In this document: piece after piece, positions 8,687 to 40,440 of the stretch | Layout: every line of letters starts with the position of its first letter | How positions within the stretch are numbered: position 1 is the first letter of the stretch | From: Planctomycetaceae bacterium SH139 | GTDB taxonomy: Bacteria > Planctomycetota > Planctomycetia > Pirellulales > Pirellulaceae | Strand: one strand, 5' to 3' | Assembly: GCA_052161645.1 (NCBI GenBank) | Contig: CP197414.1 | DNA length: 64,000 nucleotides | Program-made: the position numbers and the translations under genes | The notes under the pieces: generated by a model | Databases searched by the model: none | Told to the model about the DNA's origin: nothing | What the model saw: the letters and a program-made list of their open reading frames with translations, nothing else

Positions 8687-8981
8687 AATAAGCTCCTCTT
8701 CTAGAAATCAAATAAGTTACATTTTGAAAATGTGTGCTAAGCTGTGCGACAAGCGAAACGCGGAACACAAGCTGAAAATCACAGCACACTTCGGCCAGCG
8801 AAGATTCATGCGTCGTTGACCACGCAATGGGGCCAAATTTTTTAAAAAATGGCAATTTCCAGACACGCCACTAAACAGATGCTGAGCAGGCGGTCGAAGC
8901 GTGGGTTAGCAAATCAATCCGCTGCAGTATTTTTTTAGGAAAATCTCCGCCATTTTAAACTAGGCAGGCAACAACAACGCG

Positions 8982-9542
8982 ATGAACGGCGAAGTGACCC
9001 AGGTTCTGCACCAAATTCAAAACGGCGACCAGCAGGCAGGCAGTCAATTGCTGCCGTTGGTGTACATGGAGCTTCGTCGCCTTGCTTCGCGTAAAATGCT
9101 TCACGAGAAGTCGTCTCACACGCTACAACCAACGGCCCTGGTGCACGAGGCCTTTCTTCGTCTGGTGGGGGGAGAGCATGCTCAGTCCTGGGACTGTCGC
9201 GCGCATTTTTTCGCAGCTGCGGCTGAGGCGATGCGACGAATTTTAATTGAATGCGCGCGGCGGAAAAGCACGGAGAAGCGCGGCGGTGATAGGCAACGCG
9301 TCGAACTTCCGATCGACGATGCGGCTGTCGCTTCTGAAGACTTGGAATGGTTGTTGGCTCTTGACGAAGCATTAACGAAGCTGGCTTCCGAAGATGCTGA
9401 CTTGGCACGCATCGTCCAGTTGCGGTACTTTACGGGCATGACCGTCGACCAGACGGCAGAACTGCTGGACGTTTCGCCCCGGACAATCAAACGCAATTGG
9501 ACGTATGCTCGAGCGTGGCTCCGTCGGGAAATGGAGGGATGA
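8982..9542 (+). CDS. ECF-type RNA polymerase sigma factor (planctomycetal TIGR02999-like, kinase-associated)
   Basis: Region 2 (LVHEAFLRL) and region 4 (RIVQLRYFTGMTVDQTAELLDVSPRTIKRNW) signatures. 186 aa. Immediately followed by a Ser/Thr kinase gene. Confidence 0.9.
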   Translation: MNGEVTQVLHQIQNGDQQAGSQLLPLVYMELRRLASRKMLHEKSSHTLQPTALVHEAFLRLVGGEHAQSWDCRAHFFAAAAEAMRRILIECARRKSTEKRGGDRQRVELPIDDAAVASEDLEWLLALDEALTKLASEDADLARIVQLRYFTGMTVDQTAELLDVSPRTIKRNWTYARAWLRREMEG

Positions 9543-9545
9543 GCT

Positions 9546-24596: not shown

Positions 24597-25688
24597 TTGA
24601 TGAACGATCCACAAGAAAACAACCACAACGCGTTCCCCGAAGAAGCTATCGGTGATGACGAACACAATCGTCCGCAACCAGCCGACGAGCCGATAACTCA
24701 CGTCCGCTCTGAGGATCTGCTCGACCTCATGCGACAAACGATTCTGCGTTTGGAATCGGACCAACCGTCGCGGGGCGATGTGAAAATCCTCAGCCGGACG
24801 CTGCGTGAATTACGCTATGCCTTCAAGGTATTCCAGCCCTACCGGCGGCGGCGCAAATTGACCATTTTTGGTTCCGCACGAACCCCGGCCTCCGACCCCT
24901 CCTATCTGGCGGGCGCCGAACTGGGCCGCGCCATCGCCGAGCATGGCTGGATGGTAATTACGGGAGCCGGCGGGGGCATCATGGAAGCCGGCCATCGCGG
25001 TGCCGGGCTCGATTCATCGATGGGGCTGAACATTATGTTACCCTTTGAGCAACGAGCCAACGAGATTATCGATGGTGATCCCAAACTGGTGACGATGAAG
25101 TATTTTTTCACGCGAAAATTAATGTTCGTAAAAGAATGCTCAGCTGTGGCTTGTTTGCCAGGCGGGTTCGGCACCTTGGACGAAGCGATGGAGACGCTGA
25201 CTCTCCTCCAAACCGGCAAACAAACGATGCTGCCCGTGGTCTTCCTTGATGCTCCTGGTGGCAGCTATTACCGCGACCTCAGCCACTTTATTGATCGCCA
25301 TTTGCTCGAAGGGGGCATGATCAGCGCCGAAGATGTGCGACTCTATCGCGTCACCGATTCGGTAGACGAGGCGGTGCAAGAAATCCTCGGTTTCTATCGT
25401 GTCTTTCATAGCATGCGGTACGTCCGCAACCACTTAGTTCTGCGGCTCAAATCGCCACTTTCACCTCAATTGCTCGAAGAGGTAAACACCCGTTTCAACG
25501 ACATCTTGGTGGAAGGCAAGTTTGAGCAATCGACCGCTTTTCCGGAAGAAAAAGACGAAAGCGAGCTAGCTGAACTTCCGAGATTGGTCGGACATTTTGA
25601 TCGCCGCAGTCTCGGGCGGTTGAGAACGCTGATCGATTACATCAACGCGCCCGAGGATGGCGAAGATCCCGATTATCGCAATCTCTGA
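24597..25688 (+). CDS. LOG-family (TIGR00730) Rossmann-fold nucleotide-binding protein, long form
   Basis: LTIFGSARTP...GWMVITGAGGGIMEAGHRGA...CLPGGFGTLDE, the characteristic LOG PGGxGTxxE motif. Confidence 0.8.
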   Translation: MMNDPQENNHNAFPEEAIGDDEHNRPQPADEPITHVRSEDLLDLMRQTILRLESDQPSRGDVKILSRTLRELRYAFKVFQPYRRRRKLTIFGSARTPASDPSYLAGAELGRAIAEHGWMVITGAGGGIMEAGHRGAGLDSSMGLNIMLPFEQRANEIIDGDPKLVTMKYFFTRKLMFVKECSAVACLPGGFGTLDEAMETLTLLQTGKQTMLPVVFLDAPGGSYYRDLSHFIDRHLLEGGMISAEDVRLYRVTDSVDEAVQEILGFYRVFHSMRYVRNHLVLRLKSPLSPQLLEEVNTRFNDILVEGKFEQSTAFPEEKDESELAELPRLVGHFDRRSLGRLRTLIDYINAPEDGEDPDYRNL

Positions 25689-25706: not shown

Positions 25707-28700
25707 CTATTCCCCTAACTCGGTCTTCAATCTTTCATATTGCACGACGACCTGCTCGATGGCCGTGCGGAGTCGCTCGACTTCGCGGCCCTGGCCCTGC
25801 GCCTCGGCGGCCAACGGACGCAGCCACTCCTGAATCAGATGGAATTGACCTCGGATCACGTCCAGCAACACGCGCGGTACCTTGTGCTGCACCAACACGC
25901 GACGTTCGGTTGAATCGCTGGCTGATTGCTCGACCAATTGGCGTAGCTGCCCGGCGGTATCTCGCACCGCGTCACCAAGTTGTGCTTGGTTTCCAGCCAA
26001 CACGCCGCTGAGACGCCCCAAATGTTCGGCAATCAATTCCTGAGTCGCCGAATCACCGCGCGCGGCAATGCCTTGTTGCAAGACTCGCCGAATCGACTCC
26101 AAGCCATCCCGCATCGCTTGCAATTGCCGCATCACTTGGCCAACGCTATCCGAAGCGTCGACGCCACCCATTCGCACACTCTCAACGTAGGCGTACTTGA
26201 TCGCTTCCCAACGCTCACTCTCAGCCGCCGTCAAGGTATCCATCAGCTCCTTAAACTTGAGCAGGTTGGCCTCGTTGTCGCCAGTCAAAGTCTGCGCATC
26301 CTGCTCATAATTGCTGAACAGCAGCGATCGCAATTCCCGCTCGTTCATCACGGGAACCACACGTTCGGCAATGCGATTCATATTCCGATAGCTACCCTGC
26401 AACTTAAAGGGCGGTTCCGTTCGATAGGCATCCGCCTGGGCGGCGCTGCGGATATACTGCCGGTTAACCTTCAAAACCGCGTCGCGGACAAGGATCAACT
26501 TCCGCATCACCTCAAACATCTCACTTGCTTGGTCCATCGACCAGGCACCGGCTAGCTTAATGTCATCAGGACTGTTCCTTTCCGCCGCCCGGATCAGCTG
26601 CCGGACATCGGCTGGGTCGCCAGCCGCCAGTGGTGCCAATGTTTGGTTTCCGGTGAGACAGTTCTCCAAGTAACTGGACTCAAACGCGTCGATCGCCGTG
26701 CCGATCGTTTCCCCTAAATTATAAGTGTCCGCTCGGTTGCTGAGCATATCGGGAATCTGGAAACGTTCGCCACTTTCCGTGTAAGGGTTACCAGCCATCA
26801 CCACGGCCAAACGTCGCCCGCGGAGATCATAGGTCCGCGTGCGACCTTTCCAGACTCCTTCGATCTTCCGCGTGGCATCACATAAGGAAATGAATTTTTG
26901 CAGCAACTCTGGATGGGTGTGCTGGATGTCATCCAAATATAACATCACGTTGTCACCCATCTCCAAAGCCATGTTAATCCGCATGACTTCTTCACGAGCT
27001 GCCGCGTTCGGCGCTTCATTCGGATCTAACGATTTGACATCATGGCCAATGGCCGGGCCATTGACTTTGACAAACACCAACCCCAGCCGATTGGCGATAT
27101 ACTCCATCAATGTCGTTTTGCCATAACCCGGAGGACTGACCAACAATAACAGTCCCATACGGTCAACTCGCTTGCCTTCTCCAGCCACGCCGATTTGCTT
27201 TGCCAGGTTGTCGCCAACCAGTGGTAGATAGACTTCATCAATTAAGCGATTTCTGACAAAACTGCTCAAGACACGTGGTTTAAACTCCTCGACTCGCATG
27301 TCATGACGAGCGGCTTCCAACAAATCATGTTTGGCCTGACGCAGGCGGTGATAACGGGGAACCACATCGCGTTGATAACGCCGCACCCGCCCCAATAGTT
27401 CATGGTAATGCACAGCCATCACACCCGACTGGATTCGCGAATGGGCTCCGGCCAGATCGGTTAATCGCTTACCCAACTCCGCATCGACAGCGTGCAATTC
27501 CCCGGCACCGCCCCTCAGAATCAGAAAAGCCAGTTCGTCGAGGTAACCGGCGGCGGGATCGGCGAGGTCATCAGACTGATATTCGTCCAGAAACGCGGCG
27601 GCCCAGTTGCGAGCCAACACCAGAGCGGCGAGGGTGCAACGATCGGGCCCGGCAATCGTTTGCTCCAACAATCCATCTCGGTCGTCGCCCGGCAAAGCGG
27701 CCAAAAATTGCTCATAGAGCCCCAAGCCTCGCCCGCTGACCACGGGGTTGGTCTCGCCAATCAATTCATCGAACAAATAATTAGCAACATCCGCCCACAA
27801 GATTGAATCAAATAGTTGTCCAAACTCTGTCGACTTGGCGGTTGCTTGTAGCTCGACCTCCAGGCGTCGACGAAACTCCAAGGCCGGTTGAGCCCGCGGG
27901 TAAGCCCGGGCCAAGTTGGCAAAACCACCGATCCACCGTTGCAACTCTGCTCTCAATGGTTTCTCGGAGAGAAAATCCCACCAAATACGCCCCGCCGCTC
28001 GCACCTCGGGAGAATATTTCAATAACCCAATGTGGCCGTGAATTGCCCACAAGGTGCTGAGAATTTTTGCCGCGTCTTCATCATGCACACCCTTGGCGTA
28101 GCCCTCGCTTAACCGCCGTCCCACCGCCTCACGAACCGCCGGCAACGCTTGCGACTGTCCGAGCCCCGCATCGAATAATTCAACGGCCAGATACTCAGCG
28201 CGATATACCTCCTGGTTCTCACTACTCAACTCTTGCGACCAGAGATCCTTAGCCGCAATCAAGTCAGGATGATCCAGCGGTTCAAAAAATTGAGTCCCCG
28301 TTAAGTGCAGGCACAGCACTCCATCCCGCAACACGGTGGTGAGATCAACCGTCTGCGTATTGACCGCGAAACGATGTTGCCCGAGCCGAATGGCCTCGCC
28401 ACCTTCCTCAAACAAGTCCTGACGATCCTTCAATTGCCGAATCGCGTCTTCGCGGATGGTTTTCAAGCGGCTGCGCAAATCCTCCACGCGCACCATATCG
28501 TCCAGGGCGGTCAATTGGTCCACGATACCACGAACCTTCTCGACCATTAGATCCGAGGCGAAGTAAGCATGAATTCCATCGAGCGATGCGATGCGGCGAA
28601 CCCGCGAGAGAATCCCGCCGAGAATGCGATCGGCCGCCGCACCCAACGTCTCGGCTCGTCGATTCCGCGCCTCAACCAATTGGACTTTGCGAGTTTCAAA

Positions 28701-30935
28701 AGCGTTGTAAAGTTCCTCACGCTTTTCGGTCAGCTGGCTGGCGAATTCATCAAATTCGGCAAAACGTCCTTCCAGTTCTTCTAACTGGACCATCAGCTTT
28801 GTCAGATACTCGTCACACTTTTCAGGCGAATCACTGACGTCGAGATAACCGGCGCTAGTTTGGTCCAACAATTTGATCTGCGAGGCAAACTCGGCGCGAC
28901 CTTCGACCCCGACCAACTCGTTCAGCCGTGACTTTAGACTGCTCCGAATTCGATTAAGCCTGGCCAGCGCATCGCCGATGCTATCGATAATGCCCGTTCG
29001 TTTGGTGGCGTCATCGATGCGCAAATTGGAGACGGTTTCGGTCAATAGTTCGAGATGCCCGGCAGCCTCGTCAATCGAGGCGTCGAGCTTTCGCCCGGCG
29101 GCCACCGTCTCCACCGACTGGATGTCAGCGCTGAGCTGTTCGGCGCTGGCTCGATAGGGTTCCAAAGCGTTATCGGTCAGCAAAAAATCGACGCAACGAC
29201 GGCTGAGCCGATCCGCTTTTTCGGCGAGGGTTGTTTCCAAATGGGCGACCCGCTGCTCGTCGACGTATCGCAGCTCACGCAGTCCTATCGCATGTCCACG
29301 CTGCTCTCGCAGTTCGGCAAGATTCTTGACATAGTCGTTGATCACCTCGAAGCGAGCGCGGTCAATCGACTTCAGCAATTGCTCGACAGCCTGCTCCACC
29401 TGCCGCGTGCGCTGTTCGGTCTCCCGCCGCACCCGCACAACTTTCTCGAACTCTTCCACCGCGGCGGCGGCCGAATCGCGAATGGTCGCCAGCGGAATCG
29501 ATAGTTGTTGGGTGTCCTCTTTAGCGAGCCAAAAATAGCTATCGAGGACATCACCCGACTTTTTTACCAGATCGACGTACAGCCCCTCGTAGCTATCGTC
29601 TTTATCGATCAGTGAGAGGATCTCCGCGCACTCAGACATCCCGCGAACGAGTTCCTTATTGCCAATTTTGTAGAGCATTGACTCCGTGTCGCTGTCGGGC
29701 ACATAGTTGGCGCCAACAAAGGGTGTCTGCCAAATTTGAATTGCGTGGTGCTTCTGAGGCTCTTCGTGCGCGCGGAAGCAAACCATTTCACCCGCTTCGA
29801 AAAAGGTTTGCCCACTGCAAATTTGCGGCGTGTCAACTTCTTGCCGAATCACGTTGTAACGCAATTGGACGAAAGTCCCGCTGTCACGTGTGTAGAACAA
29901 AAAGAGATAATCTTCCCCATTGCTGGCCGCTAGGGTCCGCTCGTAGAGCATCCCTTCCAGGCCGTGATCAAACTGCTTGGAATCGCCATTCTGCAGGTAG
30001 TATCCGCCCGAATAAATAATTCCATGATCGTCAGGCAGCAGCACGCAGGACTGGGCAATCGCGTCGATGCGGGTGACACGATTAATTTTAGCATTAAAGA
30101 CAAGGTGACGAAATTCGCGCTCTTGGTAAGGGCGAATCTTCAACAAGATCAGATTGCCCAGCGGGGCATAATATATCTCTGCGTCGTCCAATGTCTGGTC
30201 AGCATTCTCGACCGGCTCATCGTAGATGCCGTAACCGCTTTCGGTGTTGTCTTCTATCTTGACCGTCAGATCGCCACCCACGCATTCAACAAAGAGACGA
30301 TCTTCGATAGCGATGTGCGGATGGGCACCGTAGCGATGTAAGTCGCGAGTTGTCCGTTTCCACTCGAAAGCGTGCTGCGGAGGATAGGAGACCTCGTGCT
30401 CGCTGCGGTTATCAATGTATTCTAGAGGCTGATCCTGTTGTCCAACGGGGAGGCGGAATTTGAAGGTCTTAATGTCGCTGGGAGATTTTCCGACGCGAAA
30501 GACCAGGTACAAAAAAGGCCCGTGGGAGAAAAACCTCGCCAGGTAAGTCCCCCGATAGAAGCGATAAAGTTCATGAAAATCACGGCTGAATCGCTCGTCG
30601 TTGAGCAGCGAATCGAGCGGTTCGGCATGAAATTGATGATCCTCAAACTTGTAAACCGCCAACACATCGTGCAGATGCGTTTCCGTTTTCAGGCCGAACT
30701 GAACGTTGTAACCGAACAAAAAACGGTTACCGACGGCGGCGAGGTCGACCGGGACACAATTATGCTCGGTCGTTACGCGGACCGTCTCGACCAACTTGGG
30801 CTCGATGTTCCCGAAGACCTCCGCCCGCGCCGCGTTGAGACGATCAATACGTTGCCGTAAATCGTCCGCCGACGACCTCAGCCGCCCGCGGAGCACCTCG
30901 TAGGTGCCCGCATCGAGTTGCTCCGCTGAAGCCAT
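25707..30935 (-). CDS. Giant (1742-aa) coiled-coil protein with an internal AAA+ P-loop ATPase domain. Last gene of the NfeD-flotillin cluster. Function unknown.
   Basis: Walker A LLLVSPPGYGKTTLMEY (nt ~27110-27150, aa ~1265). Walker B VMLYLDDIQH. Sensor-1-like LAVVMAGNP. Long heptad-rich segments before and after. No hydrophobic TM segment. Start codon abuts the flotillin stop (30935/30936). Confidence 0.85.
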   Translation of the reverse strand: MASAEQLDAGTYEVLRGRLRSSADDLRQRIDRLNAARAEVFGNIEPKLVETVRVTTEHNCVPVDLAAVGNRFLFGYNVQFGLKTETHLHDVLAVYKFEDHQFHAEPLDSLLNDERFSRDFHELYRFYRGTYLARFFSHGPFLYLVFRVGKSPSDIKTFKFRLPVGQQDQPLEYIDNRSEHEVSYPPQHAFEWKRTTRDLHRYGAHPHIAIEDRLFVECVGGDLTVKIEDNTESGYGIYDEPVENADQTLDDAEIYYAPLGNLILLKIRPYQEREFRHLVFNAKINRVTRIDAIAQSCVLLPDDHGIIYSGGYYLQNGDSKQFDHGLEGMLYERTLAASNGEDYLFLFYTRDSGTFVQLRYNVIRQEVDTPQICSGQTFFEAGEMVCFRAHEEPQKHHAIQIWQTPFVGANYVPDSDTESMLYKIGNKELVRGMSECAEILSLIDKDDSYEGLYVDLVKKSGDVLDSYFWLAKEDTQQLSIPLATIRDSAAAAVEEFEKVVRVRRETEQRTRQVEQAVEQLLKSIDRARFEVINDYVKNLAELREQRGHAIGLRELRYVDEQRVAHLETTLAEKADRLSRRCVDFLLTDNALEPYRASAEQLSADIQSVETVAAGRKLDASIDEAAGHLELLTETVSNLRIDDATKRTGIIDSIGDALARLNRIRSSLKSRLNELVGVEGRAEFASQIKLLDQTSAGYLDVSDSPEKCDEYLTKLMVQLEELEGRFAEFDEFASQLTEKREELYNAFETRKVQLVEARNRRAETLGAAADRILGGILSRVRRIASLDGIHAYFASDLMVEKVRGIVDQLTALDDMVRVEDLRSRLKTIREDAIRQLKDRQDLFEEGGEAIRLGQHRFAVNTQTVDLTTVLRDGVLCLHLTGTQFFEPLDHPDLIAAKDLWSQELSSENQEVYRAEYLAVELFDAGLGQSQALPAVREAVGRRLSEGYAKGVHDEDAAKILSTLWAIHGHIGLLKYSPEVRAAGRIWWDFLSEKPLRAELQRWIGGFANLARAYPRAQPALEFRRRLEVELQATAKSTEFGQLFDSILWADVANYLFDELIGETNPVVSGRGLGLYEQFLAALPGDDRDGLLEQTIAGPDRCTLAALVLARNWAAAFLDEYQSDDLADPAAGYLDELAFLILRGGAGELHAVDAELGKRLTDLAGAHSRIQSGVMAVHYHELLGRVRRYQRDVVPRYHRLRQAKHDLLEAARHDMRVEEFKPRVLSSFVRNRLIDEVYLPLVGDNLAKQIGVAGEGKRVDRMGLLLLVSPPGYGKTTLMEYIANRLGLVFVKVNGPAIGHDVKSLDPNEAPNAAAREEVMRINMALEMGDNVMLYLDDIQHTHPELLQKFISLCDATRKIEGVWKGRTRTYDLRGRRLAVVMAGNPYTESGERFQIPDMLSNRADTYNLGETIGTAIDAFESSYLENCLTGNQTLAPLAAGDPADVRQLIRAAERNSPDDIKLAGAWSMDQASEMFEVMRKLILVRDAVLKVNRQYIRSAAQADAYRTEPPFKLQGSYRNMNRIAERVVPVMNERELRSLLFSNYEQDAQTLTGDNEANLLKFKELMDTLTAAESERWEAIKYAYVESVRMGGVDASDSVGQVMRQLQAMRDGLESIRRVLQQGIAARGDSATQELIAEHLGRLSGVLAGNQAQLGDAVRDTAGQLRQLVEQSASDSTERRVLVQHKVPRVLLDVIRGQFHLIQEWLRPLAAEAQGQGREVERLRTAIEQVVVQYERLKTELGE

Positions 30936-33065
30936 TTAGCTAGCTCCGTTGGTGCTCGATTTCGGCTTCGCCTGGAGATAGCCAAGTGGTTTATCGGCGA
31001 ATCCCGCACTGCCGGCCATCCCCAACAAACTGGAGAGTTGCCCGCGAATATCGTCGGTATTTGCCAAGCCCATTAATTTCGCAATCAGAGCCGCGATGGA
31101 AAGATCTTTGATATCGTTGGCATCAAGTTGGAACTGCTCGACCAACTCCATCAACTTGCCCTGAAAGTACTCTGGATTGCCATTAAAGAAGGTGTCCTTG
31201 ACGTCCGTGGCGACCCGGCTGTTGTAAACGAAGCGGTCGATTGCTTTGCCACCCTTCACCGCGGAAGTAATCTGATCAAAGAATTCTCCATCACCTCCCA
31301 CGATATCGATGCGTGCCGCCTTGAGTGCGTCGCCGATAACGCTGGCTTGCGATGAAGCGATGTCCTTTTGTGCGCTGATAGCGGCAATTTCCACTGCCTT
31401 CTCTTTATCAAGCCGCAGTTTGAATTCTTCGTGCTCTTTGCCGACTCCATCGAGCTTCTTCATGGCTTCGGCCTTTTCGGTGATACCAATGGCTTCGCTG
31501 GAGAATTTTTGTTGCATGACATGTGCTTCTGCCAAGCCTTGCTTCTCCAGCGCCTCGGCCTTTGCGGCGGTACCCTTGGCTTCGGCAACTGCTTTCTTTT
31601 CAGTCACGTTGGCCTCCGCGTTGCCTTCCTTCTCGAGGGCTGTGGCTCGTGCTTCCATCACGCGGACATCGGCCAAACCGCTGGCGGCGGCCCGCGCTGT
31701 TTCGGCTTCGGCCAACATCTTGGTGGCTTGCGTATCGCGTTCGGCGGCGTCTCGATTGGCATCCGCTTCGATGCGAATCTTCTCGGCTAACAGTTCGCTA
31801 GAACGTTTGGCAGCTTCGGCGGCTTTGGTTTCGCGTATCAAAGCTTCTTCGGCCGTCATTTCGGCTGCCGTGATTTGCACCGATTTCAATCGCTCGGCGG
31901 CCGCTTTTTCCTCAGTATCCTTGATCAATTCTTGCTCTTCGACCACGGCCCGTTCGACCGCCACGCGTTCTCGGATGACCTCTTGAATGTTTCGCTTTTC
32001 AACCTCGATCGCTTTTTCCTTTTCAACTTGAGCCACGCCGACAACGCGTTCACGTTCGGTGGCTTCTAGCAAACGATCACGCTCGACTCGCTCCAACTCC
32101 ACGCCATCGGTCTTTTCTTTGTTGCGTTGAGCCACCAGCACTTGGCGTTGCTTGTTCTCTTCGGCGATGCCCAATTCTTCTTCGGTAGCGATGCGGGCTT
32201 GTTCCGCCAACAGACGTTGCTCTTCGCGGACCTTGGTGGCCGCAGCATGCTCGCGCGATTCAATTTCGGCGATCTCGCGTTTTTGCTTTTCAACAGCTTC
32301 AACGCGTTGGCGTTCGAGCGAAAGAATGGTTTCTTCCGCCTCGACGTCTTGCTTCTTAAGAGTCTTTTCTTTGTCGCGAGTGAATTGGTTTTCCTTAACC
32401 TTCTCCGTGGCAGTCAACTCGGTAATCTTCTTGATGCCCTCGGCATCCAAAATATTGTTGGGATTCAACAATTCGAGCGGTGTCTGTTCGAGATAGTCGA
32501 TTGCCGCATCATCGAGTCGGTAGCCATTTAGATCCGTCCCAATAACTTTAAGAATCTGATCCTTAAACTGATCGCGTTTATCATAAAGATCGACGAAATC
32601 AAACTGCTTACCAACGGTTTTCAAGGCTTCGCTGAATTTGGCGTCAAAGAGTTCTCGCAAGGTATCAATTTGGCTGCACCGCTTGGCCCCGATCGACTGT
32701 GCGACCTCGCGAATTTCACTCTCGGTTTTATCGACCCGAATAAAGAAGGCAACCTTGATGTCGGCGCGGATGTTATCGCAACAAATCAGCCCCTCCGACC
32801 CTTGGCGAGCAATCTCAAAGCTTTTCAGCGTTAAATCCATCCGCTCTTTGTGATGAAAAACGGGAATGACAATCATGCCCCCACCGGTCACCACGCGCAT
32901 ATCACGTTTGCCACCGGTCACAATCAATGCTTCGTCAGGGCCAACCTTGACATAGAACGAACTGAGTACAACGACTGCACCAAGCAGCAGTACGAAGGCA
33001 ACCGCGGCGACAATTAAGGCGAATTGCCAAGAGAAAATCTCAAAAGCCAACAGGGACGTTATCAT
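30936..33065 (-). CDS. Flotillin-like SPFH/band-7 protein (YqiK-like), 709 aa with very long Glu/Ala/Lys-rich coiled coil
   Basis: N-terminal TM (FALIVAAVAFVLLLGAVVVL). SPFH core (YVKVGPDEALIVTGG...). Extended EA-rich coiled coil. Overlaps the upstream NfeD-like gene by 4 nt. Confidence 0.9.
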   Translation of the reverse strand: MITSLLAFEIFSWQFALIVAAVAFVLLLGAVVVLSSFYVKVGPDEALIVTGGKRDMRVVTGGGMIVIPVFHHKERMDLTLKSFEIARQGSEGLICCDNIRADIKVAFFIRVDKTESEIREVAQSIGAKRCSQIDTLRELFDAKFSEALKTVGKQFDFVDLYDKRDQFKDQILKVIGTDLNGYRLDDAAIDYLEQTPLELLNPNNILDAEGIKKITELTATEKVKENQFTRDKEKTLKKQDVEAEETILSLERQRVEAVEKQKREIAEIESREHAAATKVREEQRLLAEQARIATEEELGIAEENKQRQVLVAQRNKEKTDGVELERVERDRLLEATERERVVGVAQVEKEKAIEVEKRNIQEVIRERVAVERAVVEEQELIKDTEEKAAAERLKSVQITAAEMTAEEALIRETKAAEAAKRSSELLAEKIRIEADANRDAAERDTQATKMLAEAETARAAASGLADVRVMEARATALEKEGNAEANVTEKKAVAEAKGTAAKAEALEKQGLAEAHVMQQKFSSEAIGITEKAEAMKKLDGVGKEHEEFKLRLDKEKAVEIAAISAQKDIASSQASVIGDALKAARIDIVGGDGEFFDQITSAVKGGKAIDRFVYNSRVATDVKDTFFNGNPEYFQGKLMELVEQFQLDANDIKDLSIAALIAKLMGLANTDDIRGQLSSLLGMAGSAGFADKPLGYLQAKPKSSTNGAS

Positions 33066-33751
33066 TTACCTGCCTCGTGGGATTGGACCGTATAGACTCT
33101 TGCGGTGGGATCAAAGTCGATAATTTCTGCGAGCTGGCCTTTCACCAAGGTTTCGCCCGTTGTGCGGATATTTAACAGCAGCGGCGCTCCATCAGTTTTA
33201 AAGCGGGCCCGTCCAAACTCAGTGGTGGCCTCGCCGGTCTCAATTTCGCATATTTGGCCGACGATCTGATCGGTACGAAAAGCGGTCGAACGCTCGAACC
33301 AACCACGCATCGGTAGCGTCAAAAATTTGGTAATCGTGACTGACAACACCAGATTTCTGCTCGCTAGAATCACGCTGGTCAACAACAACGGCTGATAGCG
33401 ATCACTATCAAATCCTTCCCAGAGCAACAGCGACAGCAACCACCAGCAAAAGCCGAACACGCTCATCCAGATGAACACCGGTATCGTGTCCAGGTTGAGC
33501 CAGCGAATCGATGCCGCTCCCAGCGAACCGGCGGAATCTGCAAAGCCGGCTATTCCGTCACCATCGGCATCGGCAACTTCAAAATCTCCGTCAGCCAAAC
33601 CCATGAAGATTAGCACGCAATATGCGAGCAGTAGGCAGATTAAAACGCTAGCGGGCCAGACGGGGCCGGTAAAGCAAATTTGCAGAAACTGACTAATCGA
33701 TTCAAACATCGCTGTTGTGTTCCCTCGTTGCCGACGCCCCCAATGGTACAT
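33062..33751 (-). CDS. NfeD-like / YqiJ (DUF1449)-like inner-membrane protein with C-terminal OB-fold
   Basis: 229 aa. 3-4 hydrophobic helices, then a beta-rich C-terminus (GQICEIETGEATTEFGRARFKTDGAPLLLNIRTTGETLVKGQLAEIIDF). Gene order matches E. coli yqiJ-yqiK. Confidence 0.65.
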   Translation of the reverse strand: MYHWGRRQRGNTTAMFESISQFLQICFTGPVWPASVLICLLLAYCVLIFMGLADGDFEVADADGDGIAGFADSAGSLGAASIRWLNLDTIPVFIWMSVFGFCWWLLSLLLWEGFDSDRYQPLLLTSVILASRNLVLSVTITKFLTLPMRGWFERSTAFRTDQIVGQICEIETGEATTEFGRARFKTDGAPLLLNIRTTGETLVKGQLAEIIDFDPTARVYTVQSHEAGK

Positions 33752-33882
33752 GCTGCCAAAGCATTAGGCGGGAATGCCCGCAGAACCGGGCGCGAGGAAT
33801 TGAGTATAATCCTCGCCCGACGGTCAATCCGGCCGAATCGGCAAATTAAGCAACAAAGTTATCGCCGAAAATCTAGCAGCGG

Positions 33883-35145
33883 CTAGCCGGAGAAATCACG
33901 CCGCGACTGCTGAGCGAGCCGCTCGACTGCTGGAGAACGCTGGATAAGTGCCGCTTCGATTGGCGTTTCAGCGGCAGCTTGCTTGGCAAGCTTTCGATTC
34001 CCACGCAAGGCAACGACGTGGCTGAGGACCCGTTCCAAGCGGATGATGCCGACCAATCGCCCGGAGGCGTCTACCACCGGCACCGGACCGCTGGGAGGGG
34101 TTTGAAAACCGGCCAATTGTGGTTCCAGATTACCTGGTGCCTGGAAGATGGGCTCGTCGTCGCGCATCAGATCGGTAGCAATGCGGTCCCAATCATCCTG
34201 CTCCGCAGCCTCCACGACGGCCGCACGATCAAGCATTCCCAGAAAGTAGCCTTCAACGCCGCAAACAGGCAGGCTGGGGTTTCCAGTAATCGCAAAACTG
34301 TCGACCAAGTCCTGCACGCGATCCATGGCTCCGACCGATTGCGTTGCAGGCTCCAACCAATGCTCCACGCGCATGCCTCGCATGGCTTCTCCAAGAGCAA
34401 CTTGGCGGGCCTCCACCGAACCCGCGTAGGCGATAAATCCAGAGACCAGGATGACGGTGTACATTTGAAAATAAATGCCCAAGCCGGCCATCAGCAAGGC
34501 GATCACAAAACCAATCCGCGAAGCCAAATAGGTAGCGGTTCCATAATCAGTCAACATCGCCAAAAAGGAGCGAAAGACCCGGCCACCATCCATCGGAAAG
34601 GCAGGCACCATGTTGAAGATCACCAAAGCCAGATTGATCAACAGCAACCATCCCAGCGGATGCTCGCCAATAATCACAAGCGCCTCATCAAACGAGGCCA
34701 CATCTTCGGCGCGAAAAACGAAAAACAAAGCGACCGCCGTGAGCGCAGCAATCACCACGTTGACAGCCGGACCGGCAACCGCGACCAGAAACTCTTGAAT
34801 GGGCTTCCTCGGCATCCGTTCCAACCTCGCCACACCGCCGATCGGCAACAAAGTAATGTCAACCGTCTGCACGCCAAATCGTCGCGCCATCATGGCATGA
34901 CCATACTCGTGCAAAGTGACACACAGGAAAAGCACAGCAATCTGCGCCATGGAGGTCCCAGCCGCCAACCAACCTTGCTGGGTTTGCCAGCCGGCGACCC
35001 AGCCCGCATCGGTTTGCTCGCCAGCGGCAAACATGCTCGACGCGCCAACACCCAACATCAACAACCAGAAAGACCAGTGGATGTACAGGTCAATACCGAG
35101 GTAGCGGCCAATATTGAGACGATTGGCGATGTGACGACGAAACAT
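33883..35145 (-). CDS. Site-2 protease (M50 family) with C-terminal CBS-domain pair
   Basis: HEXXH in a TM helix (VTLHEYGHAMMARRFG). Second metal-ligand region LVIFNMVPAFPMDGGRV. C-terminal CBS-like segments. Confidence 0.85.
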   Translation of the reverse strand: MFRRHIANRLNIGRYLGIDLYIHWSFWLLMLGVGASSMFAAGEQTDAGWVAGWQTQQGWLAAGTSMAQIAVLFLCVTLHEYGHAMMARRFGVQTVDITLLPIGGVARLERMPRKPIQEFLVAVAGPAVNVVIAALTAVALFFVFRAEDVASFDEALVIIGEHPLGWLLLINLALVIFNMVPAFPMDGGRVFRSFLAMLTDYGTATYLASRIGFVIALLMAGLGIYFQMYTVILVSGFIAYAGSVEARQVALGEAMRGMRVEHWLEPATQSVGAMDRVQDLVDSFAITGNPSLPVCGVEGYFLGMLDRAAVVEAAEQDDWDRIATDLMRDDEPIFQAPGNLEPQLAGFQTPPSGPVPVVDASGRLVGIIRLERVLSHVVALRGNRKLAKQAAAETPIEAALIQRSPAVERLAQQSRRDFSG

Positions 35146-35394
35146 GCGGGGCCAGCCAGTGCGGGTAGAGCTTTCCGTATATTCTACGGTACGGAGTGAG
35201 ACGTGTTCATGGGAATTCAGCTTGACCGATTCCCGTCACGATTTCCCTCGCTTCATTCTCTCTCCGCGGACCAAACTGGACCGCAGCTAACGTCCCAGCG
35301 GCAAATGGCTTGCGGAGAGAATTCGCATTCAATTCTAGCCGCTCGCCGAGGGAATGAGGGCCAAGTCGCGGCGATTCAGGCAAGATAGGCGATG

Positions 35395-37539
35395 CTAAGC
35401 CGCCTTGGCTTGACTGGTACCACACAAACTCCGGAAGAAGGCGTTGCGTTGCAGCAATTCTTCCCGACTCCCTTGATCACTGACCCGACCATGCTCAAGA
35501 ACCGCTACCCGATCAGCAAGCGCTAACGTGCTGGAACGGTGGGTGATCATGATCCCCGTTCGCCCCACGAGGAACTCAGCTAGCGCGGTGTGAATCAATT
35601 GCTCGCTCTCGATATCGATTTGGCTGGTCGCTTCGTCCAACACCAAAATGTCTGGGTTGCGAAGGAAAGCACGCGCCAGCGCCAATCGCTGCATCTGCCC
35701 ACCTGATAACCTCGTGCCCGCGGTACCGAGCATCGAATCATAGCCAGCGGGGGTTTTACTTTGAATGAATTCATCGGCATACGCTTGGCGAGCCGCTCGA
35801 ATAGCATCCTCCCGCGAAGCCCGCGGAGAACCATAACGAATATTGTTCAAGATCGTATCGTCAAAGATCACCGTCCGCTGAGTCACCAAACCGATGCGTT
35901 TTCGTAAATCGCGACTGCGAATATCCCGAATGCTGATCCCATCGATGGTAACTTCACCACAACTCGGATCATCAAAGCGACACAGCAGGCTGACCAAGGT
36001 GCTCTTCCCAGAACCATTCGGACCGACCACCGCCAAGCTTTGACCATGGGGAATCTCCAGTTCCAAATTGTCGAGCACTTGAGGGCCAGTCGGATAGCTG
36101 AAGTTGACATTGCGAAAAGCCAGCAGCTGATGTGGCCTGGCAACGGTTTGGGGATCGGCTGGCTCACGCACGCGAACTGGTGCATTGACCACTTCCATCA
36201 ATCGTTCCGAAGCGGCGATCCCGCGTTGCAGATTGCTCCACACATCGCTCAGCTTTCTGGCGGGGTCCGAAGCGCCGATTAACAGCCCAAAGAATAAGAT
36301 CATCTCACCCACGCTCAACGGGGTGGCTCGCATCTGAATTCCGAGCAAAGCGGTTTCACCGTTGAGCACCAGATAACCACCCGCCAATAAACCAATGCAA
36401 ATGATGGTGGTTCCCAAAGCTTCCGTGGCAAAACGGCTAGCTGCATTATAAAAAGCCACTTTCATCGATTTGCGATAGTACTTCCCAGCCCCTTGGCGGA
36501 AGCGCGCCCGCTCGTAACTCTCCGTATTATAAGCACGCACAATTCTGATGCCGGCAAACATCTCGCTAAGCATTCCATACAGCTGAGTCATCTCTTCCAT
36601 GACCCGACGGCTGCTACGGCGAATCGCCCGACTCAGTGTTTGAATCACAAAGCCGACCAGCGGGGCGACGATGAAAGTCAGCAGCAACAATCGCCAACAA
36701 ATCATACCCGCGCCGACCAAACAAACGATCATCTTCAGTGGTTCGCGGACCAGCCGGCCAACCACGATGCTGATCCCCATGGAAAGATCGTTCACATCAC
36801 CCGTCAAGCGACTAGTCAATGCCGAGGAACCGGCCTCACCATAGTGTTCTAAATCTTGGCGGAGCGCGCGGCGAAAGAAGATTTCCCGCATCTGCATCGC
36901 AGCCCGCTGACTCAAATCTTGAACCAACATCAGATTGATAGTCAGCGCGATGAGCTTGATCACGGTTGCCGCGATCAACAACGCGACGACCAACACCAAA
37001 GTGCGAAAAGGAGTCGTCGGCAAGTGCTCGCTCGCCCACGGTTCAATCCAACGCAGCGTCTCGGTCGATTTCCGGTAGGTCGTCTCTTTCAATTGCTCCG
37101 CTTCGATACGCCAATCTAAATCCTGACGTTCCGCCGCCAAGCGGGTGGCTTGCCGGTCGTCGAGAGCGGTGGCCTGGGCAGCTGCGATCTCAACCAAACG
37201 CAGCTGCAAATCGCCAACTATTTGAGCTGCCTCATTCGCCTTCCGCTCATTTTCAGCCACTTGGGTCTGAATGTAATTGGCCGCCCCTTTGCCCTCAAAA
37301 ATGACCTCCACCATCGGAAAGACTGCGGAAATGTTGGCGCCCCACAACAGGGCCACCAAGAACGACGAGAGGAGGCAACAGCCCAACGCCCATCGCCGAC
37401 GAAGCACAAGTCGCATTACCTGGAGAAAGTCTTTCATCCTTGGCCTTCCCTGCCCAAAGGTTGCCGGCCAGCCGCTGACGACGACGGACCACAGCACAAA
37501 TTTTTTCCCAGCGTAACAAACAGTGGTTCCCAGAATCAA
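35395..37539 (-). CDS. ABC transporter, fused permease/ATP-binding protein (MsbA-like exporter) with an unusual ~80-aa coiled-coil insert after TM1. Likely start at MKDFLQ (nt ~37437).
   Basis: Walker A GPNGSGKST. Signature LSGGQMQRLALARA. Walker B ILVLDEATS. Six TM helices. Insert QTQVAENERKANEAAQIVGDLQLRLVEIAAAQ... Confidence 0.9.
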   Translation of the reverse strand: MILGTTVCYAGKKFVLWSVVVSGWPATFGQGRPRMKDFLQVMRLVLRRRWALGCCLLSSFLVALLWGANISAVFPMVEVIFEGKGAANYIQTQVAENERKANEAAQIVGDLQLRLVEIAAAQATALDDRQATRLAAERQDLDWRIEAEQLKETTYRKSTETLRWIEPWASEHLPTTPFRTLVLVVALLIAATVIKLIALTINLMLVQDLSQRAAMQMREIFFRRALRQDLEHYGEAGSSALTSRLTGDVNDLSMGISIVVGRLVREPLKMIVCLVGAGMICWRLLLLTFIVAPLVGFVIQTLSRAIRRSSRRVMEEMTQLYGMLSEMFAGIRIVRAYNTESYERARFRQGAGKYYRKSMKVAFYNAASRFATEALGTTIICIGLLAGGYLVLNGETALLGIQMRATPLSVGEMILFFGLLIGASDPARKLSDVWSNLQRGIAASERLMEVVNAPVRVREPADPQTVARPHQLLAFRNVNFSYPTGPQVLDNLELEIPHGQSLAVVGPNGSGKSTLVSLLCRFDDPSCGEVTIDGISIRDIRSRDLRKRIGLVTQRTVIFDDTILNNIRYGSPRASREDAIRAARQAYADEFIQSKTPAGYDSMLGTAGTRLSGGQMQRLALARAFLRNPDILVLDEATSQIDIESEQLIHTALAEFLVGRTGIMITHRSSTLALADRVAVLEHGRVSDQGSREELLQRNAFFRSLCGTSQAKAA

Positions 37540-37742: not shown

Positions 37743-38726
37743 TTGTTGCTGTTCGTTTTTCAACTTGCACCGGGACCGACCACGATGGCGATCAACCAAC
37801 TGGAGTTATGGCCCAGCGAAGAAATAGCTGTTGAGGAAGTTGCCAGCGAACCCCCTGTTGCCAGCGAACCCCTGTCGGCTGCCGCCGAAGCGAGGCAATT
37901 AGTCGCCTCGCTGCGTCGTCAAGTGACTTCTTTGGAAACGGCCACGCGAGCCACTTCGGCAACTCAGATTTCTTGCGGTTGTGCCGTTTTGGATGCCATG
38001 TTGCCGGGAGGCGGCTTGGCTCCGGGCACACTTAACGAGTGGGTCGAGCAGGAGCCTGGCGGGGGCGGAGGTTGGCTTTCCCTGCTAGCCGCTCGCAGCG
38101 CTTTGCTGCCAACTACCTCATCCCTGGCAAACTCAAGCGTCTCCCTAGCCACAGGCCAGATGGTGATTCTGGACTTAGCTGGGACATTTTACCCGCCCGC
38201 GGCGGCAGCGGCCGGGATACCGACGGAACGGATGATTGTGGTCCGCCCAGCCAATCGAGCCGATGCTTTGTGGGCGGCCGATCAGGCGCTCCGCAATCCG
38301 GCGGTCACAGTTGTTTGGGGACACTTGGAGCGGCTCGATGATCGTGAAGCGCGACGGCTGCAGTTGGCGGCCGAACTGGGCAACACCTTGGGGCTTTGGT
38401 TGCGTCCTCGCGTGGCCTTAAACGAACCGAGTTGGGCGGAAGTTCGCTGGCATGTGCGGAGTCTGCCCGGCAATAAATTAACGGCGAATCACTTTTCCAG
38501 CGGGGGTGAAACGAGTTGGCCGCCGGTCACGATTCAGCGACGCCTGGAAGCTCGCTTAGTACGTTGTCGCGGCGGTCGTTCAGGAGCGAGCGTGGTTTTA
38601 GATATTGATTCTGGCGGGCGAGTTCATCATGCGTCGAACGATCAACAAACGGCTGCTTTGCCTTTGGTTGCCCAATTGGCCCGTCCAACGTCTGATCGCC
38701 AGCAACCGCAGCGACGACTCGCCTGA
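37743..38726 (+). CDS. imuA: ImuA-like RecA-fold protein of the ImuA-ImuB mutagenesis module
   Basis: ISCGCAVLDAMLPGGGLAPGTLNEW and ...MIVVRPANRADALWAADQALRNPAVTVVW resemble the degenerate RecA/SulA-like core of ImuA. Directly followed by imuB. Confidence 0.65.
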   Translation: MLLFVFQLAPGPTTMAINQLELWPSEEIAVEEVASEPPVASEPLSAAAEARQLVASLRRQVTSLETATRATSATQISCGCAVLDAMLPGGGLAPGTLNEWVEQEPGGGGGWLSLLAARSALLPTTSSLANSSVSLATGQMVILDLAGTFYPPAAAAAGIPTERMIVVRPANRADALWAADQALRNPAVTVVWGHLERLDDREARRLQLAAELGNTLGLWLRPRVALNEPSWAEVRWHVRSLPGNKLTANHFSSGGETSWPPVTIQRRLEARLVRCRGGRSGASVVLDIDSGGRVHHASNDQQTAALPLVAQLARPTSDRQQPQRRLA

Positions 38727-40440
38727 CAGACCGACCGTGCTGTGGGGAGCCGATCCACGTCGCGGCCGCCTCGTCGTTGCTCGCTGTCCGTTGGCGGCGG
38801 CTGTCGGTGTCCGCACTAACATGCCGCTCAGCCAAGCCGACTCGTTGCTCCGCGGTATCATGGCGGCGGAGATTTGCTTGGAGCCACATGACAGCCAAGC
38901 CGACATGGAAGCTTTGTACGATCTGGCCGAGCGGTGTGCTGAGCAATTCAGCCCGCTGATCGCGCTGGAGCCGCTCGATGATTTCCTGTGGGCCGGTCAA
39001 GTCCTGCATCAACCGCAAGCGTTATTGATGGATGTTACCGGGGTCAGCGCGTTGTTTGGTGGTGAGGATTGCTTGTTACGCGAGGTGACTGAGTTCGTCA
39101 ACAAATGCGGCTATCAACCACGGCTGGCAATCGCTGACACGGCCGCCGCGGCATGGGCAGTGGCGCATTACACACCACCCCAGATGCCATCACTATTCCA
39201 GCTGGAGGACTTTTTAGCCTGGTTGGTTCCCGCTGGCGAACAAGCCGCCGCGCTAGCCAACTTGCCGATCGCCGCCTTGAGAGTTCGCAGCGAGACGACC
39301 AAGCTGCTGCGGCGATTAGGCATTCATCACATCGAAGCGCTCCGGCGTCTTCCCCGCAGTGGCTTGGCCAGCCGGCTGGGGATCACGCTGCTGCAGCGGC
39401 TCGATCAAGCGCTGGGTGAAATCGATGAACCGCTCCCCATGCACCACGCGGCTGCCAGCAACCGCCTGACTACCGAACTGGAATATCCGACCGCGGATCA
39501 AGATATTTTGGGGCACCACTTAGAGCAGCTCATTGAGAAAATCGCTGACAGTTTAGCCAAACGGCAATACGGTGCGCTGCGGATCAGCTGTCGCTTGGAG
39601 CTGCAGGCCGCTCCGGCGGTAGAATTTCGCTTAGGGTTATTCACTCCGACCGCTGACGCGGAGCATCTGATGCGATTATTCCGCGGGCACCTGACACAGC
39701 AACGTTTGCCAGCCATGGCCCATCGCTTGACCGTCACCGTTACCATGTCGGGGCCATTGGGTGTGCGACAACCGACCCTTGACGGCATCGAAGCGGGCCC
39801 AGTCGGTTCGCTGGTGGAGTTAGCCCAATTAATCGATGCACTCAGCGGACGCTTGGGGCGAGAGCGCGTGCTGGGCATCGAAGCCACCCATAATCCACTC
39901 CCCGAAGCGGCCATACGCTTGCGTCCCCTGACCGGTCAACCGCCGGGAACAATCGTCCCGGGTCGCCCCCAGCCTCAACGCCGCAAACATGGCAAAGAAA
40001 ATAAACGTGACAACACAAACCGTCGTCGCCAAAGCATTCAACCACTCGAGCATTCACCCGAACATTCAATCGAGCATTCAACGCAACCAGGCGCGACGAC
40101 TGCCAGCCCGGGCGATCCTCTCCGCCGCCCGTTGAACTTATTGCCACATCCCCAACGCATTCATCCGCTGGACTCTGGCAACCTCAACCGCGAGATCGCA
40201 TCTCAACCCGACCAACAACCGGCACCCTATCAGCAGCAACCACCTGAGAAATTTCGCTTGGCCGGCAGAACGTATCAATTGGCGCGCTACTGGGGGCCGG
40301 AGCGGTTGGAGACAGGCTGGTGGCACGGCCCGCTGCACCGCCGCGATTACTATCGATTGGAAACGGTCGATGGAAGATGGTTATGGATTTATCGTGATTT
40401 GCGAAGCCATAGTTGGTTCCTGCACGGCTACTTCGCCTGA
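38605..40440 (+). CDS. imuB: ImuB, catalytically inactive Y-family polymerase-like protein. Probable start MRRTINKR at nt 38629 (overlaps the imuA 3' end).
   Basis: N-terminal LLCLWLPNWPVQRL, the hallmark ImuB start (WLcLhfPxLpl). UmuC-like fold length with a C-terminal extension. Lacks the conserved acidic catalytic residues at the usual positions, by eye. Confidence 0.75.
   Translation: MILAGEFIMRRTINKRLLCLWLPNWPVQRLIASNRSDDSPDRPTVLWGADPRRGRLVVARCPLAAAVGVRTNMPLSQADSLLRGIMAAEICLEPHDSQADMEALYDLAERCAEQFSPLIALEPLDDFLWAGQVLHQPQALLMDVTGVSALFGGEDCLLREVTEFVNKCGYQPRLAIADTAAAAWAVAHYTPPQMPSLFQLEDFLAWLVPAGEQAAALANLPIAALRVRSETTKLLRRLGIHHIEALRRLPRSGLASRLGITLLQRLDQALGEIDEPLPMHHAAASNRLTTELEYPTADQDILGHHLEQLIEKIADSLAKRQYGALRISCRLELQAAPAVEFRLGLFTPTADAEHLMRLFRGHLTQQRLPAMAHRLTVTVTMSGPLGVRQPTLDGIEAGPVGSLVELAQLIDALSGRLGRERVLGIEATHNPLPEAAIRLRPLTGQPPGTIVPGRPQPQRRKHGKENKRDNTNRRRQSIQPLEHSPEHSIEHSTQPGATTASPGDPLRRPLNLLPHPQRIHPLDSGNLNREIASQPDQQPAPYQQQPPEKFRLAGRTYQLARYWGPERLETGWWHGPLHRRDYYRLETVDGRWLWIYRDLRSHSWFLHGYFA

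Follow-up and report, generated by a model that had tools for sequence, protein, structure and literature searches.

The 64-kb window analysed here (64,000 nt of contig CP197414.1 from Planctomycetaceae bacterium SH139) carries a minus-strand module of three genes that encode (i) an NfeD2/YqiJ/YuaF-type membrane protein, (ii) a flotillin-like protein of the SPFH family and (iii) a giant soluble ATPase with DUF3686, DUF7902 and AAA+ domains. The YqiJ-like, flotillin and DUF3686 ATPase genes are, with high confidence, a real and conserved operon-like module. The window locus is the abbreviated form of the PspA-associated envelope-stress operon of Ravi et al. 2024 (mSystems, PMC11237479), and it is a new Pirellulaceae member of an already published, experimentally uncharacterised module. 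The ATPase may act as an ATP-driven remodeller of flotillin assemblies, and possibly of PspA assemblies too, a role that is put forward tentatively.

A conserved three-gene module

The region studied comprises five minus-strand open reading frames (ORFs) at positions 25707-37539, all of which are present and co-oriented as the first-pass annotation had described. The three that form the core are tightly coupled. The NfeD/YqiJ-like gene (33062-33751, minus strand, 229 aa) overlaps the flotillin gene (30936-33065, minus strand, 709 aa) by 4 nt, with ATGA read directly at 33062-33065 (context GTAA ATGA TAACG). The flotillin stop codon abuts the start of the giant ATPase gene (25707-30935, minus strand, 1742 aa) with a 0-nt gap (GCTAGC TAA ATG GCT, giant ATG at 30935). 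Both junctions are as first annotated. For the four genes other than the giant one, Pfam and NCBIfam also uphold the domains first proposed. A sigma-70 promoter scan found no promoter-like site upstream of the NfeD-like gene, while a terminator scan found fewer terminator-like sites than in shuffled sequences and nothing decisive.

Homologues of the giant protein are widespread, with more than 4,487 proteins at E<=1e-10, 935 clusters at 50% identity and at least 586 species-level genomes. The best match among the matches listed is 76% identical, and the named close matches are all from Pirellulaceae; orthologues outside the Planctomycetota are 43-50% identical to the window protein. Gene neighbourhoods were compared at 80 loci from a species scan, 6 loci around close homologues and 2 loci around flotillin C-terminal fragments (L087 and L088); ORFs were called at each locus, clustered and searched with the five window proteins. 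The neighbourhood counts rest on the 64 loci, from six phyla, that have more than 3 kb of sequence upstream.

A flotillin gene of about 700 codons lies just upstream of the giant gene, on the same strand, at 61 of these 64 loci, and a YqiJ-like gene is also present in at least 53. The flotillin gene is found upstream in all Planctomycetota (15/15), Verrucomicrobiota (17/17) and Clostridia (4/4), in 23 of 25 Bacteroidota, in the single Fibrobacterota locus (1/1) and in one of two Desulfobacterota. The spacing is likewise close: the 4-nt overlap and 0-nt gap of the window recur in L085 and L086, and in Clostridia the gaps range from -11 to +12 nt. The earlier proposal that an NfeD/YqiJ-flotillin pair is here extended by a giant cytoplasmic AAA+ gene is borne out by this comparison, as the three-gene order and strand recur across the six phyla and the adjacency is conserved.

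The Bacteroidota usually encode a longer version of the operon, in the order CesT_Tir_1, PspA/IM30, YqiJ-like protein, flotillin and ATPase, the last two often separated by one to three variable small genes; a divergently transcribed helix-turn-helix (XRE-type) gene faces it. An upstream PspA gene (PF04012, E=3e-34) is found in 17 of 25 Bacteroidota loci and CesT_Tir_1 (PF22550, E=1e-52) in 14 of 25.

Several loci depart from the compact arrangement. Small, non-conserved genes, one to three in number, separate flotillin from ATPase in many Bacteroidota and some Verrucomicrobiota, so that the close spacing of Planctomycetota and Clostridia is lost there. The intervening genes encode lipoprotein-like ORFs, small transmembrane (TM) proteins and a DUF559 endonuclease-like protein (e.g., L023 8612-9698, L040 9039-9943, L083 7838-9738 and L053 9544-9918; DUF559 in L045, L046 and L088). 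In L036 (7084-10886), L056 (6277-10196) and L078, genes for DUF4178, a Ser/Tyr/Gly-rich lipoprotein-like protein, DUF350 (YjfL-type) and a TM-fused spermine synthase follow directly downstream of the ATPase; this run, from DUF4178 to spermine synthase, corresponds to a second class of PspA-associated operon in Ravi et al., the polyamine-linked one, which at these loci adjoins the flotillin-ATPase module. Splitting into two or more ORFs affects the giant gene, and at times the flotillin gene as well, in L005, L032, L080, L081, L087 and L088 (flotillin 490+193 aa and ATPase 576+1210 aa in L087; 449+265 aa and 429+1158 aa in L088), which reflects either sequencing frameshifts or pseudogenisation or splitting. 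In L088, from Hymenobacter sp. AT01-02, a pair of the CBASS type (antiphage signalling by cyclic oligonucleotides; CD-NTase and TIR-STING, 8358-10288) lies convergent to and just downstream of the ATPase gene; it was seen once and is probably incidental.

Architecture of the giant ATPase

The giant protein belongs over its full length to a catalogued family and has Pfam matches to DUF3686 (residues 25-468, E=5.7e-184), DUF7902 (589-672), AAA (1263-1337) and AAA_5 (1263-1387), the last two marking a single AAA+ module around residue 1263. Its structure was predicted in two AlphaFold2 models built from 62-sequence alignments of full-length database homologues, with mean predicted local distance difference test (pLDDT) scores of 86.5 and 85.1. 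In these models a helix (residues 11-41) is followed by about 28 beta strands (47-403), long helices (420-841), a small beta unit with a helical domain (848-1141), and the alpha/beta core and lid of an AAA+ module (about 1230-1590). The first-pass annotation described an AAA+ domain flanked by long coiled coils; the AAA+ module and the helical bundles stand, while the description of the protein as only that does not, since the N-terminal 450 or so residues are of a different, propeller type.

The DUF3686 region (residues 25-468, nt 29532-30863, minus strand), preceded by the N-terminal helix, is predicted to be a beta-propeller-type domain. It is modelled at pLDDT 85-96, and Foldseek comparison of the N-terminal domain to PDB returned the DCAF1 WDR domain, paraoxonase-1, Ski8 and YncE at probability 1.00 and the clathrin terminal domain at 0.96. 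The top Foldseek matches included IFT-A subunits and the clathrin heavy chain, which combine a propeller with helical repeats. At query-normalised TM-scores of 0.06-0.12 they were rejected as a sign of a protocoatomer-like relationship, and the likeness is only a superficial architectural resemblance. Coat-like proteins are known from bacteria of the Planctomycetota-Verrucomicrobiota-Chlamydiota (PVC) group.

The propeller-type domain is followed by long helical bundles or coiled coil (residues about 469-845, nt 28401-29531, minus strand), which include DUF7902 (nt 28920-29171), and by a middle domain (residues about 846-1229, nt 27249-28400, minus strand) in which a small beta unit (848-886) precedes a helical domain. 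G852, E906, G949, H951 and D954 of the middle domain are invariant (alignments A1 and A3). The AAA+ module (residues about 1230-1590, nt 26166-27248, minus strand) has a Walker A motif SPPGYGKT (1267-1274), a Walker B motif LYLDDIQH (1332-1339), a sensor-1 motif AGNPY (1381-1385) and an Arg in NRAD (R1401), followed by lid helices. Walker A, Walker B, sensor-1 and the NRAD Arg are invariant in 26 homologues of 31-62% identity, and the module appears catalytically intact from these motifs. By structure comparison, its fold appears MoxR/dynein-like. No aromatic pore-loop motif was read in the stretch between Walker A and Walker B. The C-terminal helical tail (residues about 1591-1742, nt 25710-26165, minus strand) is poorly conserved, with helices modelled at pLDDT 46-72 and a consensus that is mostly 'x' in alignment A1.

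With a 19-residue Kyte-Doolittle mean that peaks at 0.99, the protein shows no hydrophobic segment and is thus predicted to be cytoplasmic. The Pfam scan found no peptidase, VWA, DNA-binding or effector domain (nuclease, TIR or pore-former) in the giant protein, and a sequence search of PDB gave weak AAA P-loop matches only. The database title of the DUF3686 family is 'ATPase involved in DNA repair', which NCBI carries on from Pfam as 'DNA repair ATPase'.

Flotillin and the YqiJ-like membrane protein

The window flotillin (Band_7, with YqiK homology) has a predicted N-terminal TM segment (residues 16-34), a Pfam Band_7 match at 40-183 (E=9e-11) with conservation that reaches to about 220, an Ala/Glu-rich helical region at about 220-560 by hydropathy and composition, and a conserved C-terminal region at about 560-709 that does not align to Escherichia coli YqiK. 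The protein is 29% identical to YqiK over 454 aa (BLASTP, E=3e-43) and about 150 aa longer. Alignment of the flotillin profile to YqiK by hhalign covers profile positions 25-437 only. Homologues adjoining a giant gene are 56-74% identical to the window protein within the Planctomycetota and 40-54% identical in other phyla. No match to Pfam Flot (PF15975), the flotillin C-terminal signature, reached E<=0.01, either in the window protein or among 20 family members. Thus, as Flot is not matched and the last ~270 residues are without alignment to YqiK, the protein belongs to a divergent subfamily of the YqiK-type flotillins.

The C-terminal region (about 560-709) appears unique to this subfamily. 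A search with the last 170 aa returned only short gene fragments; the two that were looked up on long contigs (L087 and L088) are both split genes that adjoin DUF3686 genes. In sequence searches of PDB the flotillin itself gave no match, and its profile hit nothing but a single coiled-coil stretch of QmcA. Of the 20 family members (alignment A5), only three reach Pfam Band_7 at E<=0.01. With so few Band_7 matches, many flotillin partners are annotated 'hypothetical' and their link to the ATPase is invisible to domain-based neighbourhood screens. In the gene tables of L001 and L003, the flotillin partner is often without a precomputed Pfam domain.

The NfeD-like protein has hydrophobic segments at residues 34-52, 92-110 and 122-140 (Kyte-Doolittle), a short acidic loop after the first TM segment and a beta-rich domain at its C-terminus. 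Its Pfam YqiJ_N match is weak (E=0.005), and 8 of 17 family members match YqiJ_N. A profile of 16 homologues (alignment A6) aligns to E. coli YqiJ over 183 columns at an hhalign probability of 96.9% (E=1.5e-10), and a hidden Markov model (HMM) built from the homologues at the comparison loci recovers the window ORF at E=1e-53. The identification of the pair as a YqiJK-type module, made in the first-pass annotation, is therefore upheld by the YqiK and YqiJ matches alike. The gene probably begins at the ATG at 33709 (Met15) rather than at 33751, as homologues align from there and the called gene of the closest relative is 214 aa. Most homologues have a far longer Asp-rich acidic loop after the first TM segment than the window protein does. 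A PDB search with the NfeD-like profile gave no match, and no peptidase domain was found in the protein in the Pfam scan.

Relation to known systems

The first-pass annotation did not recognise the module as a named system; the operon is, however, already described. Section 19 of Ravi et al. (PMC11237479) sets out a CesT/Tir, PspA, YqiJ/YuaF, band-7/flotillin and beta-propeller/coiled-coil/AAA+ operon, explicitly mentions an abbreviated form without PspA, and lists the same gene string from Dokdonia donghaensis (IS97_2772 neighbourhood) in Table S3. That study (preprint 2020, paper 2024) is purely computational and assigns no function to the ATPase. The window shares with the published operon the three core genes, their order and orientation, and the propeller, coiled-coil and AAA+ architecture of the ATPase, and the Flavobacteriia loci of the present comparison reproduce the full published operon. 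By contrast, the CesT/Tir-PspA dyad and the divergent helix-turn-helix regulator are absent from the 64-kb window, where the module instead sits behind a site-2 protease (S2P) and an ATP-binding cassette (ABC) exporter gene.

The two upstream genes are homologous to E. coli yqiJK and Bacillus subtilis yuaF-floT, the NfeD2-SPFH2 two-gene module, in the same order and with overlapping genes. In E. coli, however, yqiK is followed by sibD/ibsD and no ATPase lies downstream; the window flotillin is also longer, its SPFH domain is divergent and its last ~270 residues have no YqiK counterpart in the alignment.

A pairing of an SPFH scaffold with an AAA+ machine has a precedent in HflK/C-FtsH, in which an SPFH cage encloses an AAA+ machine at the inner membrane. 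The window likewise encodes a putative SPFH-family scaffold beside an AAA+ ATPase. The window ATPase, however, has neither a protease domain nor a TM segment, and its AAA+ module appears closer to MoxR/dynein than to FtsH. It is paired with the SPFH protein by gene order, whereas hflKC and ftsH do not share an operon. The window partner also differs from HflK/C-FtsH and from NfeD1b-stomatin in that it has no protease domain of either the FtsH M41 or the ClpP-like NfeD kind.

Among AAA+ enzymes of apparently related fold, MoxR proteins (CbbQ, NorQ and RavA) and the AAA modules of dynein and midasin match at a sequence identity of 11-16%. Unlike dynein and midasin, the giant protein has a single AAA+ module within 1,742 aa that also hold a propeller and long helical bundles. 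It is not filed as a MoxR enzyme because the VWA partner that defines MoxR systems is lacking: no VWA/MIDAS partner is present in the giant protein or among its conserved neighbours. The likeness to Vps4-ESCRT-III is a functional analogy only, in that an AAA+ ATPase is genomically linked to PspA in Bacteroidota. PspA belongs to the ESCRT-III superfamily.

Proposed role and alternatives

In the mechanism proposed, the flotillin and the YqiJ-like protein would together build an oligomeric scaffold at the cytoplasmic side of the membrane. The ATPase would oligomerise through its AAA+ module and dock through its beta-propeller, perhaps on the C-terminal region (560-709) of the flotillin. Hydrolysis of ATP would then cause flotillin assemblies to be assembled, disassembled or repositioned during membrane stress, and PspA assemblies may be acted on as well in carriers that have PspA at the locus or elsewhere in the genome. 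This model is suggested by (i) the stoichiometric-looking coupling of the ATPase to a membrane scaffold across phyla, (ii) the linkage in Bacteroidota to PspA, a member of the ESCRT-III superfamily, and (iii) the placement of a predicted protein-binding propeller some 800 residues, filled by helical bundles and the middle domain, from an apparently intact AAA+ ring module. A lever or remodeller action is favoured over the threading of polypeptides because the aromatic pore-loop motif is missing and the AAA+ fold appears MoxR/dynein-like.

A bolder version, which is considered doubtful, is that the DUF3686 ATPase is a dedicated remodeller of bacterial flotillin scaffolds and of co-encoded PspA/ESCRT-III-like polymers that docks on the flotillin C-terminal region. 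If this were true, the DUF3686 ATPase would be a functional counterpart of Vps4 or NSF. To our knowledge, reviews describe bacteria as having no counterpart of either.

Several observations weigh against a remodelling role. The physical interaction of the proteins, their oligomeric state and the substrate of the module are all points that we infer, and the lack of a pore loop is a reading of the sequence only. Three of the 64 loci (L032, L033 and L050) have the ATPase among unrelated neighbours with no flotillin nearby, which indicates that the ATPase can exist alone. PspA is absent at all the non-Bacteroidota loci examined, and HMMs built from the Bacteroidota neighbours found no PspA or CesT homologue in the 64-kb window; the PspA link may not hold for the window. 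The Walker B motif of the giant protein is DD, not DE, and the propeller fold matches have low TM-scores (0.3-0.4 per target in Foldseek). Full-text literature searches returned no paper that names DUF3686, PF12458 or DUF7902, no experimental work on the ATPase and none that joins 'ATPase involved in DNA' with flotillin.

An alternative that is possible, though less probable than remodelling of the scaffold, is that the flotillin serves as a platform only, while the ATPase works, in the manner of MoxR chaperones of maturation or assembly, on client membrane proteins or complexes in the microdomain, which it inserts, activates or extracts. The apparently MoxR/dynein-like fold would be compatible with such an activity, yet the usual MoxR partner, a VWA/MIDAS adaptor, is found neither in nor beside the gene, and no conserved candidate client gene lies nearby outside the Bacteroidota. 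Moreover, the flotillin (40-54%) and the ATPase (43-50%) are similarly conserved outside the Planctomycetota, which suggests a direct partnership between the two.

The first-pass annotation had grouped all five genes into one system, a machine in which an ABC exporter and a CBS-regulated S2P would join the NfeD-like protein, the flotillin and the ATPase, with the S2P standing in for the protease with which NfeD proteins are associated. The S2P gene (33883-35145, minus strand, 420 aa) has a Pfam Peptidase_M50 match (E=4e-24), visible HEYGH and NMVPAFPMDG motifs and a weak CBS match in its tail. The ABC exporter gene (35395-37539, minus strand, 714 aa) encodes an MsbA-like protein with ABC_membrane and ABC_tran domains (Pfam and NCBIfam). 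Co-orientation of the five genes speaks for such a machine, as does L086, the closest relative (giant protein 76% identical), where the same five-gene order is found with an S2P of 50% identity and a partial ABC exporter gene of 70% identity; in Stieleria maiorica (L003) an S2P (40% identity) likewise precedes the module. Beyond the window, however, these are the only 2 of 86 comparison loci with an adjacent S2P, and L086 is the only one with an adjacent ABC exporter. Neither gene is adjacent in L002 or L085 (73-75% identity), and across the 68 non-Planctomycetota loci S2P finds no match; their only ABC-type matches are weak (26-30% identity) and lie thousands of bases off, mostly on the opposite strand. 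The gaps between the S2P and NfeD-like genes (131 nt) and between the ABC exporter and S2P genes (249 nt) are both ordinary intergenic distances, in contrast to the coupled core, and a promoter-like site was found upstream of S2P (35209-35181) in a sigma-70 scan that was indecisive overall. The S2P and ABC exporter were considered as components and rejected because the pattern, with adjacency limited to a few Pirellulaceae, is that expected of inherited local synteny in one family. They are lineage-specific neighbours by descent, the core of the system is three genes, and the substitution of an S2P for the NfeD-associated protease finds no comparative support; a five-gene machine is improbable.

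As for the 'odd coiled-coil insert' reported for the ABC exporter, an insert is present, in the form of about 100 hydrophilic, helix-prone residues (about 75-172) between hydrophobic segments 52-70 and 183-201. It falls between the first and second TM segments, in the first extracytoplasmic loop. The gene may start at an internal ATG (Met35) rather than at the TTG at 37539.

A conflict (defence) machine was among the readings suggested at the outset. A role of the module in anti-phage defence or conflict, as a sensor or abortive-infection machine at the membrane, is very improbable. A large multi-domain NTPase of unassigned function would suit such a system, as would the association with the 'phage shock' protein PspA in Bacteroidota and the CBASS/STING neighbour at one Hymenobacter locus. 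Nevertheless, a PADLOC-DB v2 scan of nine proteins gave no full-length match, with P-loop-level matches only for the giant protein (14-23 bits; mad8 23 bits, IetA about 15 bits) and generic ABC ATPase matches for the exporter, and no effector domain of the nuclease, TIR or pore-former kind turned up in the Pfam scan. RecG, CarB and a glycogen-phosphorylase-like gene mark the window as housekeeping chromosome. In Pirellulaceae the family is collinear and close to ubiquitous, and it retains 43-50% identity in other phyla, whereas defence genes are patchy and fast-evolving.

A DNA-repair ATPase that stands beside flotillin by coincidence only, as the database name, weak RuvB_N matches and the imuA-/imuB-like genes 2 kb upstream of the array in the window might suggest, is highly implausible, since the RuvB similarity spans about 50 residues around the P-loop (22 bits versus a cut-off of 282), the giant protein lacks a detectable DNA-binding domain, its conserved partners at 61 of 64 loci are two membrane proteins, and the imuAB adjacency occurs at no other locus examined.

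Genes that flank the array

On the far side of the giant gene, a LOG/TIGR00730-family gene (cytokinin riboside 5'-monophosphate phosphoribohydrolase-like; 24597-25688, plus strand) converges on it; the two stop codons are 18 nt apart, with no terminator-like site predicted between them. At the other end, a gene that resembles imuA (ImuA in NCBIfam at E=1e-24, short of the cut-off) and an overlapping imuB-like Y-family polymerase gene (together 37743-40440, plus strand) are divergent from the ABC exporter gene, and no plus-strand ORF of dnaE2 size follows them. After the imuB-like gene comes a minus-strand ORF that is DUF3417/alpha-glucan-phosphorylase-like (41151-43367). An Rfam scan of the whole window gave no matches.

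Significance

The role of bacterial flotillins and the turnover of their assemblies are still debated, and we know of no energy-consuming partner for bacterial flotillins or for bacterial PspA. The module offers a candidate for such a partner, as the ATPase is almost always encoded directly behind the flotillin gene (61/64 loci). The annotations in current use, 'DNA repair ATPase' for the giant family and 'hypothetical' for many of the flotillin partners, are both misleading. Novelty is limited in that the association has been published computationally and would not surprise a specialist. Carriers of the module number hundreds of species and include culturable Flavobacteriia, Hymenobacter and Pirellulaceae; thus, the question is experimentally tractable, and the module provides a testable entry point into the energetics of flotillin and PspA.

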